64,000 bases of DNA from Bacillota bacterium (GCA_040766985.1 JAXGPL010000011.1:24095-88094); one strand, 5' to 3'; numbered from the stretch's first letter, positions 5,655 through 64,000 are shown. Numbers and translations: made by a program. Notes: generated from the sequence alone by a model not told the origin.

Positions 5655-6041
5655 ATGAGAAACAGGGGTCTTGTCGCAGCAATCGCCCTCGTCGTAGTCC
5701 TTGCGGTAGGCTTTGTGGTGGTGGCTCACTTCCGCAGCGCAGAGGCTCTTTCCGAGGGGAAGGAGCGGGTGATCAACCTCAAGGTTGGCGACACATACAC
5801 GGTGGTTCTCGACTCGAATCAGTCAACGGGCTATTCATGGGCGCCCACCTTTGACTCCGCCTTGCTTGAACTGGTAGACCAGGAGTTCACGGCGTCGACA
5901 ACGATGCTCGGCGCAGCCGGCCAAGAGCACATCCGATTCAGGGCTCTTGCCAAGGGGACCACGGAGGTGCGGTTCGCCTACCAGCGGGCCTGGGAAGGCA
6001 ACGCTGAACGGGTCGCAACCTACCAGTTCAACATCAAGTAA
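5655..6041 (+). CDS. secreted/membrane-anchored chagasin-family (I42) cysteine protease inhibitor
   Basis: N-terminal hydrophobic helix; SNQSTGYSW, LGAAG, YQRAWE loops match the NPTTGY/GxGG/RPW chagasin motifs. Confidence 0.8.
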   Translation: MRNRGLVAAIALVVVLAVGFVVVAHFRSAEALSEGKERVINLKVGDTYTVVLDSNQSTGYSWAPTFDSALLELVDQEFTASTTMLGAAGQEHIRFRALAKGTTEVRFAYQRAWEGNAERVATYQFNIK

Positions 6042-6049
6042 GGGTTTCG

Positions 6050-6409
6050 TCAAAGCGTGCGGCGAAGGTGGTCCGGGCCACCTTCGTTTGCCGCATCTGT
6101 CCTCTCCTGGTCTCCTGTCGCACGTACGCGACCTGTGTACCTGTCAACGTGCTGCACCGCTCCGCACGAATCGCACACGAACTGCTCCAGCTCGCGCCGC
6201 ACCTCGTTGACCGTACCACACTCGGTGCAGGTCAGTGGCCAGAAGTCCCCCTCATTGGTGCCGATCATCGCGAGGGTGGTAAAAGACAGCAGTGTAACGA
6301 CCCAGGCCGGGGGAAAGACGAACCCCAGCCCGAGAGTAGCCAGAACGACTGCGGCAGCGGTCAGCCTGGCTTGCCTTGCCGAGGCTTTCTTAGTCGTTGG
6401 GTCTCTCAT
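6050..6409 (-). CDS. small membrane protein with C-terminal zinc ribbon
   Basis: two hydrophobic segments followed by CTEC...CDSC. Confidence 0.6.
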   Translation of the reverse strand: MRDPTTKKASARQARLTAAAVVLATLGLGFVFPPAWVVTLLSFTTLAMIGTNEGDFWPLTCTECGTVNEVRRELEQFVCDSCGAVQHVDRYTGRVRATGDQERTDAANEGGPDHLRRTL

Positions 6410-57360: not shown

Positions 57361-57992
57361 CTACTTCAGGATGTGAATCCACTCGCCGAACAGGAACTGC
57401 AGCCGCCCGATGAACAGGCTGATCCGGGCCATGACCGTGGTCCCGAAAGACGCCCCGAACCCGATCATCATCGCCCATTTGCCGACTTCGCTTGTGGCCA
57501 TCAGGACGCGCTTTAAGCCCTGAACAATGCCCGGGTCCGTCGGATTGATCCGCGCGGTCACGGTGAAGAAAAAGTACGTCAACGTGCTCGCGACGCACAC
57601 CACGAAGATCACGTTGTTGACGCTCGTCAGAGGGAGCATCGTCGCACGGACCTGGCGCATGAAGTTGGCGTCAAGCTGGCCGGTGATGGTGACGGCGCCA
57701 GCGACAGATCATGAACGACAGCGGATCCGGCTGGTCCAGGCGATCTTCGGAAACCAGCGCGCCAACAACAGAAGGCCGCCGCCAAGGGAAAAATCGGCCA
57801 TAGCTTGGAGCCGCTGAGAAGTTGCACCGCCATCTCCTGGATGTTTGTAAAGCCCATGACCGGAAAGGTGCGCGCCGTCAGGCCAATCAGCAAGTGCTCG
57901 GTGATCCTAAAGAACGCGTTCTCCTTATAGAGGTAGCTGTACGCTCCTATGGTCGCCAGGGCCGCAACCCATACGCCTACGCTCTGGCTCAT
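57361..57992 (-). CDS. uncharacterised multi-pass membrane protein, gene 4 of the DUF6754-like operon (indels ~57700-57800)
   Basis: MSQSVGVWVAALAT..YSYLYKEN.FFRI.EH...; C-terminal YFFFT...GFGASFG.TVMARISL.IGR.QFL; ATGA overlap with gene 3. Confidence 0.7.
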
Positions 57993-58815
57993 GCGGTAGC
58001 CCTCCCTGTCCTGGCGCCTTGCACCACGAAGAATAGGACGTTGCTGATGATCATCAGGACAACAAAGTAAAGGTGGCCGATCGATTGAGCGTCCATCGCC
58101 GCTATGCCTTACCCGGCGTCTTGGCCAGGTATTCGTACTCTGCTGCACCGGCCATGCCTCCGAGAAGACCCTTGAGCTGGCCGGAGGACAGGAATACGAG
58201 GTGGCCGACAATGCCCGGGCCGACCGTGCCGACGATGGTCGGTGTGCCGAATTTGGCCTCGATCTGGCGGATGAACCACCATCCTGCGTCGCCGGAGGTG
58301 AACGCGGCGCAGAGATCGATGTCCTGGATCCCGCTGATGCCATCCATCAACGGCAAGTCCTCTATCGGCGTGTTGTAGTAGTCGGTGTCATACATGCCGC
58401 GTAGGTCCTCGCCCAAGGCCTGGACGGCGGTCTCCTGCCCGGCGCGGTAGGGCATCAGCACGATGTCGGAGCCGTAGACGTACCCGTAGTCGGGAGCGAC
58501 CTGTTTGACCAGCCGGTCGCCGTACATGACGCCCTCGGGCACCAGGGTGACAATGATGATCTTGTGGCTGTTGGCCATCAGGTGCTTTGCGATGGCAAGG
58601 GTCTGGGGCCAGTTTTCAGCTTCGCTCGCCGGAGCCACGTCGGCGCAGATGATCGCGGTCGAACCGGCCGGCAGTGAGTCCACGAACTCATAGGCCATGC
58701 GGGCAGGGTCGCCAACGCGCAGCGGGAGGCCCAGCGGTTTATACAGCGGCAGCATGATGCTCACCACCAGGATCACGTAAAGGAAACGAACGTCAAGGTG
58801 CAGCAGCCTATTCAT
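57989..58815 (-). CDS. uncharacterised membrane-anchored protein, gene 3 (indel near 58105)
   Basis: N-terminal TM, globular alpha/beta domain, SGQL.GLLGG..GAAEYE; frame correction adds MDAQSIGH plus a C-terminal TM ending at the ATGA overlap. Confidence 0.7.
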
Positions 58816-59438
58816 TCACCGACACCCCCCAGGTGCCCGCGCTCGAGGCCGAGGATCACGCGCATGCTCAAGGCGGTCATGCCCAGCGCCGCGCCAATCG
58901 TGATTCCGCGGAGGGCTGCGGTGTTCGGTATGTCGAGCAGCCACGCGGAGATCACGGGGATTTCTGACCACATCGCGTAACCGACGCCCACGCTGCCGAG
59001 CATAACGATCATGCCCGACGCCAGAAGAACCGCCGACTGCGCGTTGCGCACACGGAACGCCCGCCAGGTTGCACTGGTCATGTAAAAGACGGTCGTCGAG
59101 TACCACGTCGCGCTCAACGGCTGGTAAAGGTTGTTCCAGAAGAACTGGTACGCCGGGTGCTTGGGCGATGCCAGAAGGCCAAGCCCAAGGTAACCGTATA
59201 GGGTAACCAACAGCAGCAAGCTGTACGGCCAGTACGCCCGCCGTTCGCGCGTCCTGGTCAGGTGGATGCGGGTTAGATTGCCCATCCCGAGGGCCAGCGC
59301 GAAGGCCGCCAGGATGATCCGCCAGCTGACAAGCTCCCTGCTGATGGTGCCTAGCGCGGGTACATTGAAAAAATAGTCAACGAGTACGATGCCGCCGGCG
59401 ACCATGCCGATCCATACCGGCAGCTCTTTTCTCAGCAT
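58812..59438 (-). CDS. uncharacterised multi-pass membrane protein, gene 2
   Basis: about 6 TM, RAFRVRN, RGITIG.ALG, R.ILGLER; GGAGG RBS. Confidence 0.75.
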   Translation of the reverse strand: MLRKELPVWIGMVAGGIVLVDYFFNVPALGTISRELVSWRIILAAFALALGMGNLTRIHLTRTRERRAYWPYSLLLLVTLYGYLGLGLLASPKHPAYQFFWNNLYQPLSATWYSTTVFYMTSATWRAFRVRNAQSAVLLASGMIVMLGSVGVGYAMWSEIPVISAWLLDIPNTAALRGITIGAALGMTALSMRVILGLERGHLGGVGE

Positions 59439-59478
59439 GTTCTAACCCTCCCATGTGCCTTCGGAACTCGCCGGGCGG

Positions 59479-60240
59479 TCATTTCTTGATCAGATCAACC
59501 AGCAGGTTGCTCTTTGCCGTGACCAGGATCGAGCCAAGCACGATCAGGCCCACCGCCAGGTACTTGCCCATCTCCTGGCCGACCAGGAAACCTACCTGCG
59601 CCGGGTTCTTGGATAGATAAGCGCCCGCGGCAAAGATCTCCTCGCCGATCAGCGAGTAGTCACAGCACGCGACAAAGAACGGAAGCTGGTGGGTGTTGGC
59701 TGTGCCCGAGATCTGCAGGGCGCCGACGACGTTGCCGGCCTCGGCGAAGATTAGCGATTCGTGGTAGTAGTTGCCGAACATGAACGTGGCTGCGACCCTC
59801 TCGCGCTGCAGGATGCCGAGCACGGCTGCGCGCAGCGAGGTGTCTGCCAGGTATCTTACGTCATCGGGGTTGTAGGATTCCTCGCGTCCCACCTGACGGT
59901 AGGCGCCGCGGATGATTTCCTCGGAGATCGGTTGGGTTTCCGGTAAAGCGTTACAGACGATCATCCTGGCTTCGTGTTTGGCAACCTGCTCTGCGCAGTA
60001 GCGCATGACCTCGAACGCCGCGAAGGTCTGAGCATCAAGGGCGCCGGTGGGCTGGATGAATGCCGCGGGGCGGCCCATTTCAGTAATGCGTCCTACGGCC
60101 TCGTCAATAGCATCAAGACCTGGTAGACGACGGATGGGAAGATTGCCGGTGCGGCGGAACTTATGAATGGCTTGCCAGGCGACAGCCAGGAGCAGAACGA
60201 AGACAACGAGTACGGAGAGCCGTCCGTCTCTGATGATCAA
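59479..60240 (-). CDS. DUF6754-like membrane protein, gene 1
   Basis: AAGGAGG-TTG start; IRRLPGLDAIDEAVGR.TEMGRP, QLPFFVACCDY.LIGEE.FAAGAYLS motifs recognised from memory. Confidence 0.72.
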   Translation of the reverse strand: MIIRDGRLSVLVVFVLLLAVAWQAIHKFRRTGNLPIRRLPGLDAIDEAVGRITEMGRPAAFIQPTGALDAQTFAAFEVMRYCAEQVAKHEARMIVCNALPETQPISEEIIRGAYRQVGREESYNPDDVRYLADTSLRAAVLGILQRERVAATFMFGNYYHESLIFAEAGNVVGALQISGTANTHQLPFFVACCDYSLIGEEIFAAGAYLSKNPAQVGFLVGQEMGKYLAVGLIVLGSILVTAKSNLLVDLIKK

Positions 60241-60375
60241 GGGGTTTCCTCCTTCGTGCGGGCAAGAGCCGCCGAATAATGATTGTCCGGTCTCAACTGG
60301 GTAATCACAGCGTCGGCCACGACGTGCACGACACTGACCACCGCGCTGCTCGTCCCCCCTGGGCTTGGCAACGGC

Positions 60376-60450
60376 AATATAGTCAGGATCATCCCGGCTA
60401 AGGTGATCGGGCCCGTCCTGGTAAAATGTGGTCAGGCCCATCCCGGCTAA
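60376..60450. repeat. pair of 26-bp direct repeats (22/26 identical, 49-bp period)
   Basis: aatatagtcaggatcatcccggctaa (60376-60401) and aatgtggtcaggcccatcccggctaa (60425-60450). Confidence 0.8.
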
Positions 60451-60538
60451 TGAAGGCGACTCACCCCCCAAGGAAACCGATTGGTATCTGCGTGCGCTTT
60501 GCCGGGCTAGCTCCTTCCCGGGCGCATGAGGGTAATAG

Positions 60539-60797
60539 AAAACCCCAGCGGCACATCCCTCGCACACAGGCCGCCTAGCCCTGTGGCTGGAAACCCTCCC
60601 GCTGGGGTTTTTTATGCCCACGGTGTGGCGGGTTGGATCCTGGCCGGCCCAATCTATCGATCGGGCCGCGAACCGCTGCCATTCTCTCCGGCAGCCTGCC
60701 TCGCCTGGCGCCGCTCGGACCTGTCGCTCAACGCTGCATCGCGCCTTTGCACTTCGGTGCGATGCCCGGCCGCCGAACCCAAGGCGCCCTTCCAACC
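60539..60797 (-). ncRNA. putative structured cis-regulatory leader RNA with terminator-like stem
   Basis: closing stem GGUUGGA/UCCAACC, three internal hairpins, then a 13-bp stem AAAACCCCAGCGG/CCGCUGGGGUUUU. Confidence 0.5.
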
Positions 60798-60945
60798 AGT
60801 GAAACCTACCCTCTACCCGCCCCTGCGCAGCTGGTCCGCGAACGGGCAGGTATTAGTCCCAAATCTACAGTCAGGACCAGCTACTGTCGCTTCCGAGGGC
60901 AAAAAGCACGAAACCGTGTGTGTTCGTCAATTGCGGGGCGGGGTG

Positions 60946-61046
60946 GTGGGGGTGTCTGGAAAATTCAACCATGTCACCAAGCTCCAGTGTTGCGCCGTCA
61001 ACACCCCCGATGTGGGGGTGTCTGAAACTTCAACCATGTCATCAAG
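60946..61046. repeat. two ~36-bp direct repeats separated by 30 bp
   Basis: GTGGGGGTGTCTGGAAAATTCAACCATGTCACCAAG and GTGGGGGTGTCT-GAAACTTCAACCATGTCATCAAG. Confidence 0.85.
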
Positions 61047-61231
61047 TGCAGATTGTGTGCGATTATGCTCAGGAGGCCAGGTTTGTGGAAACCGTGATCT
61101 CGAACGACCACAAAGGCGCTTTGAGGTCGTTTGGGAGCACACGTCTTGCGAAATGAGGATCGGGAAGGTACAGGTTTCCAAGAAAGTGTGCTCTGCGCGA
61201 CCATATCACATCAGCGAAGCACACGCTGGCC

Positions 61232-61317
61232 TTGTGGTAGATTCGCGGTTCGGCATATAATGTTTGGTGTTGATGTTCGGTGTTAGGTTGCCTTAGCGGC
61301 ACGAAGTGGTTTACAAT
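61232..61317 (+). promoter_or_regulatory. tandem sigmaA-like promoters of the tRNA gene
   Basis: TTGTGG-N18-TATAAT and TTGCCT-N18-TACAAT. Confidence 0.45.
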
Positions 61318-61334
61318 CGGTTTGCGTGTTTGAT

Positions 61335-61409
61335 TCCTCGCTAGCTCAATGGTAGAGCATCCGGCTGTTAACTGGAGTGGTTGACGTTCGAGTCGTCCGC
61401 GAGGAGCCA
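61335..61409 (+). tRNA. tRNA-Asn (GTT)
   Basis: acceptor TCCTCGC/GCGAGGA, D-arm GCTC/GAGC, anticodon loop CT-GTT-AA, TTCGAGT T-loop, encoded CCA. Confidence 0.9.
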
Positions 61410-61416
61410 GTATACC

Positions 61417-61455
61417 AGGGCTTTGGTGAGGGAAACCCGCCAAAGGCCCTTATTA
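61417..61455 (+). terminator. hairpin after tRNA-Asn
   Basis: AGGGCTTTGG...CCAAAGGCCCT followed by TATTATT. Confidence 0.45.
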
Positions 61456-62740
61456 TTGTCCAAGCGCGCACCGTATCCCGAGCCTGTCTATCCACTGTGG
61501 GCCTGGCAGGCCAATGTAGTCATGCTTGGGCAATCCATTTACCTTCTGGAAGCAAGCCCCTAGACACAATGGAAGGGCCGCCCCTTCGCTATGACGTAGG
61601 TTATCGGGGTTCGCGAGAGCGGAACTCGACAACTGGCCGCAGACTAGCCCACTCAACTAGGCAAGTCGAGCCGCACCGGGAACCGGCGGGCGCGGACACG
61701 GTTAGGGAGAAACTCTCGTGGTTCCTATGATAAGGCGTCAAGCCCGGAACTCACGCACACTTAGACCGAGGCAGAAAGCTCCCCGACGGATCAGAGTCAT
61801 GCGTTACCCAACACGCGAATATCAGGCTGATCCACCGTCGTAACGCCCCGCCCGCCTGCCGTTGCTGGCGCGGTGCGGAACAAAGAATAGGCGTAGTCAC
61901 GTGCCTCTTGACACGGCCCTTCCATATCAGGAGCCTGTCTCCTTTCGAGAAGGAGGTTCGGTACCGTGAGCCCAGGACCGGGCGCGGCTTCGGTGGCCTC
62001 TTCCTTGAGGGCTGCGGTGCTCCCTTGCGCGCTATCTGTAAGAATATGTCGAGCAATAGTGTCTCCCGCCCCTTCACTGCTATATGGCATATGATATGCA
62101 GAGTTGGGCCAACTTCTCCAGGAAACGTATTGGTGCGTCCAGGGCTTGCCAATAGGTGTAACTGCCAGCGGGGGATGTCTCTCCCACGGGCGAAACGCAG
62201 AATGGGTTGCTCCTCAAAACAGCCCCAGCCCTGCGGGACGCTATCATGGACGGTTGTGTGCCATTCTCCCTGACTGTTTGTCATCACGGAGTATTGGAGG
62301 AAAGCCCTGGAGGAAAACGAGTTGCATGCCCTGCAGGCACGGCATGGCCTACGCGTATACCAGATCACCGGGCGAGCGATTGAGAGGATGTCTGGCGTGA
62401 GAGCCACATTCGGGCGTTACTCCAGATAGCCGCAATGATCTCTTCGACAGTGCCAAGCTTGATGAGATGCTGAGCGCAATGGTGTTGACTTCAGGGGCGT
62501 CTATCGAGGCTCGGGTCTTCGTTCCAACAGAAGCTTGAGCGCCCTGCGTCTGACGGACTGGTGTTTCTGGCCGACCCGTCGCAGATGAACATCTCGTCTC
62601 CAATCCGAACCATGACTTCATGCCGGGGGTGTATTGAAGCTAGAGAACCTCGGGCTCGTGCCTCGGTAAGTCCGGGTCGCTTACCATAGGACGGCTGACG
62701 CGGGGTAGTTGACCCAATGCAGAGTTCGCCAGCACGGTTC

Positions 62741-63317
62741 TGGAGTTGCTCCTGTTTTCGTGGACAGTCTGACGCTATGTAGCGACTGCCCTTTGATTGC
62801 ACCGATTCTTGCCTTTGCTGCGAGTTCGCCATTATCCTCTCGTAGTCATCTGGACTCACATACCCGAGGGCGGAATGACGCCGCTTCCGGGTTGTAGAAC
62901 CCCTCAAGGTACCCGAAGATCGCCGTTGCCAGGGCCTTGCCTGGTTGGCCAGTGGTCTCGGTCTGGGCAGCCCGTTTGCAGACTGGCGAAGAAGCTCGGC
63001 CATCGCGTTATCCAAGGCGTCGCCCACTGTGCCCATTGAGCCCAGGATGCCCGCCTGCTCAAGCCGATTGCGGAAAGTGACGGCGGTATATTGCGAACCG
63101 TGATCTGAATGGTGATCAGGCTCTGGGTCGGCTGCCGCGCTGCCAGACGGCCATGTTCACGGCCCTCAACACGAGATCCGTCTTGGCTCGAGCATCCATC
63201 GCCCACCCGACAACTCCTCGGTGGAGTACGCATCTAGCACTGTCGCTAGGTATAACCAACCCTCGCCGGTGGAGTGCTGGAGTAAGATCGGCGACCCACA
63301 ACTGGTTTGGCCTAGAC
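62741..63317 (-). mobile_element. degraded IS3-family element (transposase C-terminal part plus terminal IR)
   Basis: RPNQLWVADLT, VVGWAM, DNAMAE, RRHSALGYVSP fragments over several frames; terminal TGGAGTTGCTCCTGTTTTCGTGGACA at 62741. Confidence 0.82.
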
Positions 63318-64000
63318 TGCGTAATCCAGTGAATTCGACCACTCAGTCCAGACGAAAGTGACCACCGATTCCAATCCATTCCTCGACCAGTGAATCCAGC
63401 CCATTGCGACCACCTGTCGGAGCGAAGAGCGACGCACGGCGTGTTCAACTCTTGCTCTTGAGTGGTTTGGTGTTCAACCCTGGGTTGGTCCTTCCGCATG
63501 GATTCCCCTTCATCTCGATTTTGTGAGCGTAGTGCACGAGCCGGTCGAGGATGGCGTCGGCCAGTGAGATCGGGCACCACGCTATGCCAGTGTTCGAGCG
63601 GAGCCCGGCTGGCGACGACGGTGGAGAATCGCCGGCTGCGTCCGCTGATGACCTCAAGGAGATCGCGACCCTCAGATGGAGTAACCGGGCGCAAGGCCCC
63701 AGTCGTCGAGGATGAGGCGAGTTGTGTCCAGCCAACTGGTTCATGCGCTTGGGATATGAGCGCCGTCGCCTTTGGCTAGCGCAACATCCTCGAGGATCTG
63801 TGGCACCCGGGATTATGCGGAACAGTCTGCCGGCAGGCGGCGTTGCCGAGGGCGCACGCAATGAAGGTCTTGCCGGCGCCAGTGGGGCCGGTGATCACCA
63901 CGTTCTGCCCACGGGCCAGCCAGTCGCCGGTCGATAGGTGCCTCAGCAGGCTGCGGTCGAGGCCGCGGGGTGCGTAATCGATGTCCTCAAGACAGGCGCT
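63318..64000 (-). mobile_element. istB: IS21-family element: frameshifted istB helper ATPase and right end (continues past window)
   Basis: GPTGAGKT Walker A, LDDWG Walker B, ADAILDRLVH, GESMRK; end TGCGTAATCCAGTGAATTCGACCA with four TCCA...GACCA internal repeats. Confidence 0.85.

Follow-up and report, generated by a model that had tools for sequence, protein, structure and literature searches.

The stretch analysed here (the window) comprises 64,000 nucleotides (nt) from a Bacillota bacterium (GCA_040766985.1, JAXGPL010000011.1:24095-88094). On its minus strand lies a four-gene operon that opens with a DUF6754 gene, and a long structured leader RNA is encoded upstream of this operon. Sequence comparisons support a riboswitch-type leader with an intrinsic terminator at this place, as had been proposed in a preliminary description of the locus, and they point to the ykkC family of aptamers (Table 1). 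The region 60810-60530 is a strongly structured non-coding element that ends in a hairpin and a U run. Its 281 nt folded at -141.4 kcal/mol, compared with -120.5 +/- 5.0 kcal/mol for 200 dinucleotide shuffles (z = -4.16), and none of the 200 shuffles folded as well. A 438-codon open reading frame (59479-60795) crosses the element. This frame is an artefact of the high GC content; the Pfam match to DUF6754 begins only at residue 191, and the gene has a TTG start at 60240.

All sequence stretches named in the preliminary description were recovered on the minus strand at their positions. These are GGUUGGA (60797-60791) and UCCAACC (60637-60631), GCUGCC (60695-60690) and GGCAGC (60680-60675) around a 9-nt loop, GGCCCGAUC (60667-60659) and GAUUGGGCC (60654-60646) around a GAUA loop, the long bulged arm with its GCAUCGC/GCGAUGC cap, and a stem of 13 base pairs (bp) formed by AAAACCCCAGCGG (60611-60599) and CCGCUGGGGUUUU (60551-60539). 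The architecture drawn from them was not confirmed. By homology, the junction would be closed by a helix termed P0 and not by GGUUGGA/UCCAACC, the long arm corresponds to P1/P1a/P1b, and the two small hairpins belong to an insertion in P2. CCCGC (60633-60629) and GCGGG (60602-60598) are likewise present, but an antiterminator made of the two is not supported, as GCGG is the conserved partner of CCGU in P3.

Table 1. Leader elements and operon genes in the window. Helices, promoter and aptamer parts are predicted; R1 is a covariance model, L102 and L103 are orthologous loci, and G082 and G123 are related genomes (see text). aa, amino acids.
Feature	Position	Strand	Remarks
Probable ykkC aptamer of subtype 2a type, long form (P0-P1-P1a-P1b-P2-P3)	60585..60797	-	R1 match 60793-60587
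P0, 5' strand GGUUGGAA, then unpaired G 60789 (A5 and G6 equivalents)	60790..60797	-	pairs with 60592-60585
P1, 5' strand GGCGCC	60783..60788	-	pairs with GGCGCC 60712-60707
Conserved core UUGGGUUC (family: UAGGGUUCC), U for A, one C missing	60775..60782	-	column counts from 53 members
P1a/P1b arm, 44-nt insertion relative to the model, GCAUCGC/GCGAUGC cap	60722..60774	-	
GGUCCGAGCGG; G 60714 and C 60713 are the G48 and C49 equivalents	60711..60721	-	C49 is the subtype 2 marker (PMC6031431)
P2 (GGCG 60705-60702 / CGCC 60630-60627) around a 69-nt insertion with two hairpins and UCCAACC	60627..60705	-	
ACAC between P2 and P3	60623..60626	-	C 60625 is the equivalent of the C pairing with the guanine of ppGpp (PMC6003355, PMC6031431, PMC9881157)
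P3 hairpin CCGUGGG-CAUAAAAAA-CCCC-A-GCGG	60599..60623	-	A 60603 at the position of the PRPP-type G; position-96 rule from PMC6031431
P3-P0 linker GAGGGU, 6 nt	60593..60598	-	4 nt in relatives; 2-nt insert
P0, 3' strand UUCCAGCC	60585..60592	-	identical in L103
Intrinsic terminator AAAACCCCAGCGG / CCGCUGGGGUUUU, apical part structured, followed by CUAUU	60539..60611	-	in the minimum free energy fold of the full leader
Putative -35 GCGACA	60885..60890	-	aligns with TTGACA of L102 and L103; below the threshold of the consensus scan; conservation only
Putative -10 TAGATT, 17 nt after the -35	60862..60867	-	aligns with TATCTT (L103) and TTAAGT/TAAGTT (L102)
Start-proximal leader GGGACUAAUAC	60850..60860	-	invariant in window, L102 and L103
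Spacer of ~300 nt from terminator to start codon	60241..60538	-	Shine-Dalgarno GAAGGAGGA at 60255-60247
DUF6754 gene of 253 aa, which opens the operon and starts with TTG	59479..60240	-	PF20539, E 2.5e-76
Gene 2, membrane protein of 208 aa without family	58812..59438	-	40-45% identity with gene 2 in the operons of G082 and G123
Gene 3, 237 aa, without family	58102..58815	-	39% identical to gene 3 of G082 and G123
Gene 4, start uncertain	57627..58010	-	weak relative of gene 4 of G082 and G123: blastp E 4e-10 and 1e-6 over ~80 residues

At the gathering thresholds of Rfam, the tRNA-Asn was the sole match in the whole window, and nine loci of relatives likewise gave nothing else; a search by E-value over 58000-64000 gave no match at the element. 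The Rfam check suggested for the leader would therefore look negative unless a custom model is used. A similarity search with the 281-nt element in its own genome and 60 relatives returned pieces of 22-38 nt only. These pieces recur in many genomes, and they led to the family. The loci sharing them contain a compact RNA with CUAGGGUUCCG, GGUCCGAGCGG and ACACCGUGGG..AAAA..CCC.AGCGGCAAGUUCC. A paralogue on another contig of the same genome (locus L002, 1420-1534) matched the Guanidine-I/ykkC family RF00442 with 50.5 bits (E 5.1e-8), below the curated 63 bits. The window element itself matched RF00442 in its 5' half only (12.9 bits, E 6.7; gathering score 63).

A covariance model with 115 positions, termed R1, was built from eight short relatives. 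It matched the window at 60793-60587 over model positions 1-115 with 57.8 bits (E 1.6e-11) in a search of the relatives' loci, and with 45 bits (E 2e-7) in a search of the whole genome. Relative to R1, the window has 44 nt inserted in P1b and 69 nt in P2. R1 matches were found in 87 of 151 genomes of the class and in 26 of the 33 genomes of family f6; the source order was represented by two genomes only, that of the window (G000) and G001. In an alignment of 53 members 95.5% of the cells pair, and 20 of the 29 pairs show double changes, including all four model pairs of P0 and five of six pairs of P1. Each of P0, P1, P1b and P2 has many compensatory changes. The covariation score was 0.373, compared with 0.126 for shuffles (0 of 500 reached the observed value) and at most 0.072 for controls with slid partners, although the alignment was fitted to R1 and these statistics thus lean towards structure.

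Other members of the family carry up to 91 nt of inserted sequence in P1b and 39-54 nt in P2. As insertions are common, the additional stems of the window copy are best seen as decorations on variable arms, with the 69-nt insertion turning its P2 into a three-way junction. By homology, then, the element is an unusually long form of a known riboswitch kind and not a new class. The earlier view that it matches no known class is contradicted by the match of the paralogue to RF00442 and by the end-to-end match of R1. One candidate for a new class is thereby removed, and the element can be filed with the (p)ppGpp-type ykkC RNAs, (p)ppGpp being guanosine tetra- or pentaphosphate. This aptamer type is common in the class, accommodates inserts as long as 91 nt in P1b and 54-69 nt in P2, and is missed by the Rfam thresholds.

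The ykkC fold is known to change its ligand through single changes (PMC6031431). Subtype 2 carries a pyrimidine in place of the A in GAG-A-G of guanidine-I aptamers (PMC6031431), and the window reads GAG-C-GG, with C at 60713. In subtypes 2a and 2b both tails together form a P0 helix, in which an A is conserved and after which a G stays unpaired (PMC6031431, PMC9881157). In the window P0 is predicted with the AG tail, GGUUGGAA-G (60797-60789) facing UUCCAGCC (60592-60585); it emerged unforced in the unconstrained fold of the aptamer alone, and the same 8 bp are possible in the orthologous locus L103. ACAC between P2 and P3, whose first C pairs with the guanine of ppGpp (PMC9881157, PMC6003355, PMC6031431), is present at 60626-60623 and in most of the 53 aligned members. 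Aptamers for phosphoribosyl pyrophosphate (PRPP) have a conserved G96, which is non-G or absent in ppGpp aptamers (PMC6031431). The equivalent in the window is A 60603, directly before GCGG, and nine members of family f6 that are associated with DUF6754 have U there. Known binders have a purine-rich P3-P0 linker of 4-5 nt, and binding is poor with 3 nt; the cases described do not include linkers of 6 nt, the length in the window as assembled (PMC9881157). In the window, every nucleotide that is reported as a ppGpp contact is retained, namely the AG tail, the G-C of GAGCGG, ACAC and the purine linker. Taken together, 60797-60585 is probably a long-form ykkC aptamer of the subtype 2a kind that binds (p)ppGpp and, with the terminator behind it, controls the operon.

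Compared with the published ppGpp riboswitches of subtype 2a (PMC6003355, PMC9881157), the window copy is alike in its P0/P1/P1a/P1b/P2/P3 architecture, in GAG-C-GG, ACAC, the non-G before the 3' GCGG and the purine-rich linker, and in the combination of a P3 antiterminator with an intrinsic terminator. It differs in length (~213 nt instead of ~105-112 nt, owing to the 44-nt P1b and 69-nt P2 insertions), in U for the conserved A of CUAGGG and, as assembled, in the C missing from UUCCG and the 6-nt linker. The PRPP riboswitch of subtype 2b (T. mathranii structure; PMC6031431) has the same fold with P0 and may be as little as one nucleotide apart from the ppGpp type, but its defining G96 is A 60603 in the window, and the gene context of the window is not purine synthesis. 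Guanidine-I (RF00442, subtype 1) represents the parent fold, and its GGGUUC...GGUCCGAG elements give the sole Rfam signal; it has A (GAGAG) where the window has C, ACACGG/GGGAG where the window has ACACCG/GCGG, and the window has P0. Subtypes 2c and 2d, compared by gene association alone, accompany NUDIX/HAD hydrolases (2c) and EamA/TauE transporters (2d) (PMC7266159), whereas the window has DUF6754. Other ykkC kinds occur in the class as well: loci L097 and L098 have guanidine-I-type cores unlike that of the window, and L090 and L096 have PRPP-like cores, upstream of purE/purB and of a xanthine/uracil permease, respectively.

The 5' arm of the terminator (60611-60599) consists of the end of the P3 loop, the P3 3' strand, the A at position 96 and GCGG, and thus includes 60607-60599 of P3. 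Because it contains the P3 3' strand, aptamer and terminator would be mutually exclusive. This overlap is an ON design, and it recurs in the DUF6754 leaders of two related genomes (G082 and G123); it speaks against the ligand-OFF attenuator envisaged in the preliminary description. In the full leader the enforced homology fold reached -118.3 kcal/mol and the terminator form -139.2 kcal/mol. For ON switches under kinetic control, an aptamer fold weaker than the terminator form is the usual case. The same design has been shown experimentally for ilvE of D. hafniense, where read-through depends on ppGpp and P3 acts as antiterminator (PMC6003355). Transcription of the window leader would most likely start near 60855, from a promoter conserved in the orthologous loci. 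In the ligand-free state the terminator would form and transcription would stop at the U run near 60539. A rise of (p)ppGpp, for example upon amino-acid starvation, would let the aptamer fold with P0, P1/P1a/P1b, P2, P3 and the junction pocket. The folded aptamer would then keep CCCC-A-GCGG (60607-60599) in P3 and make the terminator 5' arm unavailable, so that RNA polymerase would read through into the four-gene operon of DUF6754 and three unannotated membrane proteins. A possible source of the ligand is the one RelA_SpoT match in the genome, which lies in an open frame of 749 aa. We infer the ligand, the ON response, the transcription start and any role of the operon in amino-acid or peptide supply.

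The terminator region is conserved in L103 (77.7% identity over window 60632-60530). A consensus scan did not list the proposed promoter and did not find the terminator, which it missed because of the long loop. A transcription start 3' of 60539 is not indicated; the putative conserved promoter lies upstream of the leader. In other DUF6754 loci the spacers between aptamer and gene range from ~150 to 560 nt. The window spacer contains a direct repeat, UUAGCCGGGAUG..CCUGAC, twice (60372-60439, minus strand), and similar UUAGCC motifs occur in the spacers of L102 and L103. In the leaders of G082 and G123 (L061 ~1400-1300 and L066 ~1420-1300, minus strand) a strong shared Shine-Dalgarno sequence follows the riboswitch terminator. 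A short frame that begins with MGI(A/T)V was noticed by eye after it, and may encode a leader peptide or serve as a further level of control.

The genes behind the relatives of the aptamer were compared. For each of the 53 aligned matches, up to two downstream open reading frames (ORFs) were translated. The Pfam search covered 83 ORFs at 51 loci, and the window gene was treated separately. The first recognisable downstream gene was ilvN and/or ilvC in 25 matches, a Liv-type binding protein (Peripla_BP_6) in six, an SNF symporter in five and DUF6754 in three (window, L061 and L066). An ilvE-type aminotransferase and leuA followed two matches each. An ATPase of the ATP-binding cassette (ABC) type, SBP_bac_5, glutamate synthase, purE/purB, a xanthine/uracil permease and an amino-acid permease were found once each. 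Three matches had downstream ORFs without family, and one (L073) had no ORF within the sequence examined. This company fits the published amino-acid theme of ppGpp riboswitches, for which branched-chain amino-acid genes, glutamate synthase, natA-type ABC, selB and rex have been described (PMC6003355, PMC9881157). The window, with DUF6754 and three unannotated membrane proteins, falls outside those published associations. An alarmone names no substrate, and the expectation that the ligand would reveal the substrate of the operon is not supported; only the company within the regulon hints at amino-acid supply.

The canonical copy in the same genome was found at L002 1255-1890 (contig C21 of G000, ~5660-6290). 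It is a short-form ppGpp-type aptamer (R1 106 bits) with promoter and terminator, and it is followed by a T-box-like leader (RF00230 with only 17 bits, E 0.18; GGUGGUACCGCG box) and then by an ilvN-type gene. It thus shares the published tandem arrangement with a T-box, which accounts for ~40% of the branched-chain amino-acid examples (PMC6003355). T-boxes were also sought at DUF6754 loci. No T-box motif with at most one mismatch was present upstream of 42 DUF6754 loci, and Rfam at the gathering score found none in 20 of them; this negative is weak evidence, as even the clear tandem copy in G000 scores far under the threshold of the T-box model.

Association of the aptamer with DUF6754 is not confined to the window. 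In family f6, searched with tblastn, the aptamer lies directly upstream of DUF6754 and gene 2 on the same strand in nine of the 30 loci tested (L061, L066, L117, L119, L120, L123, L127, L130 and L134), all with ordinary cores. Overall, the order aptamer-DUF6754 recurs in 11 loci. DUF6754 and its three partners form a highly multi-copy membrane system that is repeatedly placed under an alarmone-type switch. Since this system would share its regulon with ilv/leu genes and amino-acid transporters, a testable hypothesis on its role follows.

Scanning metagenomes with the DUF6754 protein as query yielded 12 loci. L103 (79% aa identity) shares the tRNA-Asn synteny and the promoter and has a short-form aptamer (L103 1110-1241, 90.5 bits) upstream of DUF6754. 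Its core reads CUUGGG as in the window, but it has the canonical UUCCG and a CAAG linker. P1 in L103 is GGUGUC/GACGCC, which differs from the window and keeps the pairing. With filters off, R1 on L102 and L104-L108 gave 10.8 bits at best and no aptamer. L104 (1200-1500) and L105 (830-1100), at 63% aa identity, have a different leader of ~250 nt that is conserved between both loci. In this leader a TTGACG/TATAAT promoter is combined with one or two terminators rich in GC, with no Rfam fit beyond terminator look-alikes.

Contigs from four public runs (X1, X4, X7 and X9, from three studies) were aligned on the region at a likeness of at least 90%; no public run contained half of the sampled words. 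The long form was kept by contigs of all four runs. An extra C after 60775, which gives the canonical UUCCG, was likewise present in all four. Two letters at 60593 were absent in X7, X9 and X1, leaving a 4-nt linker GAGG, and X4 had no coverage there. The U of CUUGGG was common to the window, L103 and the contigs of all four runs. Two of the three oddities of the window copy are hence private to its assembly, both at short homopolymers, and would be strain mutations or assembly errors. The third, U for A, is by this comparison a trait of the lineage. In the available text of PMC6031431 we found no statement on what this A of CUAGGG does. Contig X1, from a DNA run, does not differ from the window across 59846-60299, a stretch of coding sequence plus 59 nt before the start codon. 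Over the leader (60300-60936) it showed 14 substitutions and 19 gap letters, for which strain mixture, recombination or a local assembly error are candidates.

Several observations weigh against a (p)ppGpp-responsive aptamer controlling this operon. Rfam is silent on the element at the gathering score, the R1 score is among the lowest of the subtype-2-like matches, and the assignment of the ligand, for the window as for other members from the class, draws solely on sequence markers and neighbouring genes. The conserved 5' core of the family is UAGGGUUCCG, and the window has UUGGGUUC-G. U stands for the A of CUAGGG, a column with A in 51 and U in 2 of the 53 aligned members. As assembled, one C of UUCCG is missing (C 51, U 1, gap 1), and the P3-P0 linker has 6 nt (GAGGGU). 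In thermodynamic terms, the conserved 5' core and the P0 5' strand are both possible pairing partners of the P2 insertion, and the unconstrained fold of the aptamer is lower in energy than the homology-enforced one (-106.7 versus -100.3 kcal/mol). UCCAACC sits inside this lineage-specific insertion and would thus provide at most an alternative or decoy pairing; one may speculate that it competes with the true partner of P0. Across the 30 best-scoring DUF6754 loci R1 found no aptamer apart from that of the window. In L102, the closest DUF6754 orthologue (82% aa identity), promoter and tRNA-Asn synteny agree with the window, but there is no aptamer even with filters off, and the switch would thus be dispensable in the lineage.

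The window copy might be a decaying relic whose core and linker indels abolished ligand binding, so that a constitutive leaky terminator is left or the element is being lost. Two departures from near-invariant columns together with the 2-nt linker insert, the low R1 score, the fact that L102 lost or never had the aptamer, and the divergence of the leader beside identical sequence in near-identical contigs would all agree with decay. However, P0, P1, P2, P3 and the terminator are all intact, the changes of P1 relative to L103 keep the pairing, and the inserted hairpins are perfect stems. The canonical letters in all four runs moreover suggest that the oddities may be strain-specific or assembly errors at short homopolymers. 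We consider a relic unlikely. A different idea, to which we give only a slim chance, takes the U of the window/L103 lineage as functional: the A-to-U aptamer would alter sensing or add a checkpoint, the P2 insertion with its P0 decoy could contribute, and the DUF6754 complex would serve amino-acid or peptide uptake. If this were true, the stringent response would be connected, through the four-protein DUF6754 membrane complex, to an uptake system not known before.

It is also conceivable, but highly improbable, that the window/L103 lineage is a subtype 2 variant with a changed, DUF6754-related ligand, as the U lies beside the internal loop of the pocket. CUUGGG in the window, in L103 and in the four runs contrasts with A in 51 of 53 members, and single changes are known to switch the ligand of ykkC aptamers (PMC6031431). 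Yet all reported ppGpp-contact nucleotides are kept. The nine DUF6754-associated aptamers of family f6 carry the ordinary A, so the gene association does not track the U, and L075, which lies before ilvN/ilvC, likewise has U next to GGG.

That the ~320-nt unit from promoter to terminator is mainly a stand-alone small RNA, with operon control incidental, we regard as very remote. Contigs of the RNA runs X7 and X9, which come from one study, fall within 60253-60820, and two pieces (60520-60804 and 60492-60820) span aptamer and terminator; no contig of these two runs aligned to the DUF6754 coding region, and the contig ends differ between the runs. Such contigs show neither RNA ends nor levels, and given their origin in one study they allow no conclusion on termination in vivo. 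The ~300-nt gap to the start codon would suit a separate RNA, but a terminated leader is also the expected OFF-state product of such a riboswitch, and the recurring aptamer-gene order points to operon control. An undescribed class, with P1 GGUUGGA/UCCAACC closing a multi-stem junction and a ligand-OFF response through a CCCGC/GCGGG antiterminator, is scarcely credible: the complementary stretches exist, a similar closing helix occurs in the full-length minimum free energy fold, and the A-to-G changes that related contigs show at 60634 and 60633 would retain G-U pairs with GGUUGGA, but the homology to ykkC subtype 2 runs end to end, the UCCAACC insertion is absent from L103 and the 51 other aligned members, the GCGG part of GCGGG has CCGU as its conserved partner in P3, and the published ykkC class works as an ON switch (PMC6003355).

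The operon placed under the probable (p)ppGpp riboswitch has a conserved gene order in the window, G082 and G123: DUF6754, a protein of ~207 aa, one of 237-287 aa and one of ~210 aa. An M14 carboxypeptidase comes next in the G082 and G123 operons; none lies directly after gene 4 in the window. Pfam and NCBIfam gave no hit for genes 2-4. As listed, genes 3 and 4 (58102-58815 and 57627-58343) lie in different frames and share ~240 nt. The alignment of gene 4 to its relatives begins only at residue ~111, which suggests a start near 58010 or a frame problem. DUF6754 is a highly multi-copy family: G000 has 12 matches or more, 79 of 201 genomes of the class have a match, and the majority of copies lack an aptamer. 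Its AlphaFold model (predicted local distance difference test score 84.7) shows a transmembrane helix, a Rossmann-like domain and a second transmembrane helix. Foldseek with this model against the Protein Data Bank gave generic alpha/beta folds only (best E 6.4e-3), a search of the ESM Atlas returned DUF6754 clusters only, and a text search of a literature library found no mention of DUF6754.

A tRNA-Asn(GTT) gene (61335-61409) is divergent from the leader, and this synteny is kept in L102 and L103. Between the tRNA gene and the leader promoter (60940-61073, minus strand) lie two copies of a ~35-nt repeat (GACAUGGUUGAA.UUU.CAGACACCCCCAC), one of which is weakly similar to Rfam UptR (31.2 bits versus a gathering score of 100, E 0.04). 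At 63116-63694 a frame of 192 aa with weak rve and IstB fragments (E ~6e-4) suggests the remnant of an insertion sequence.

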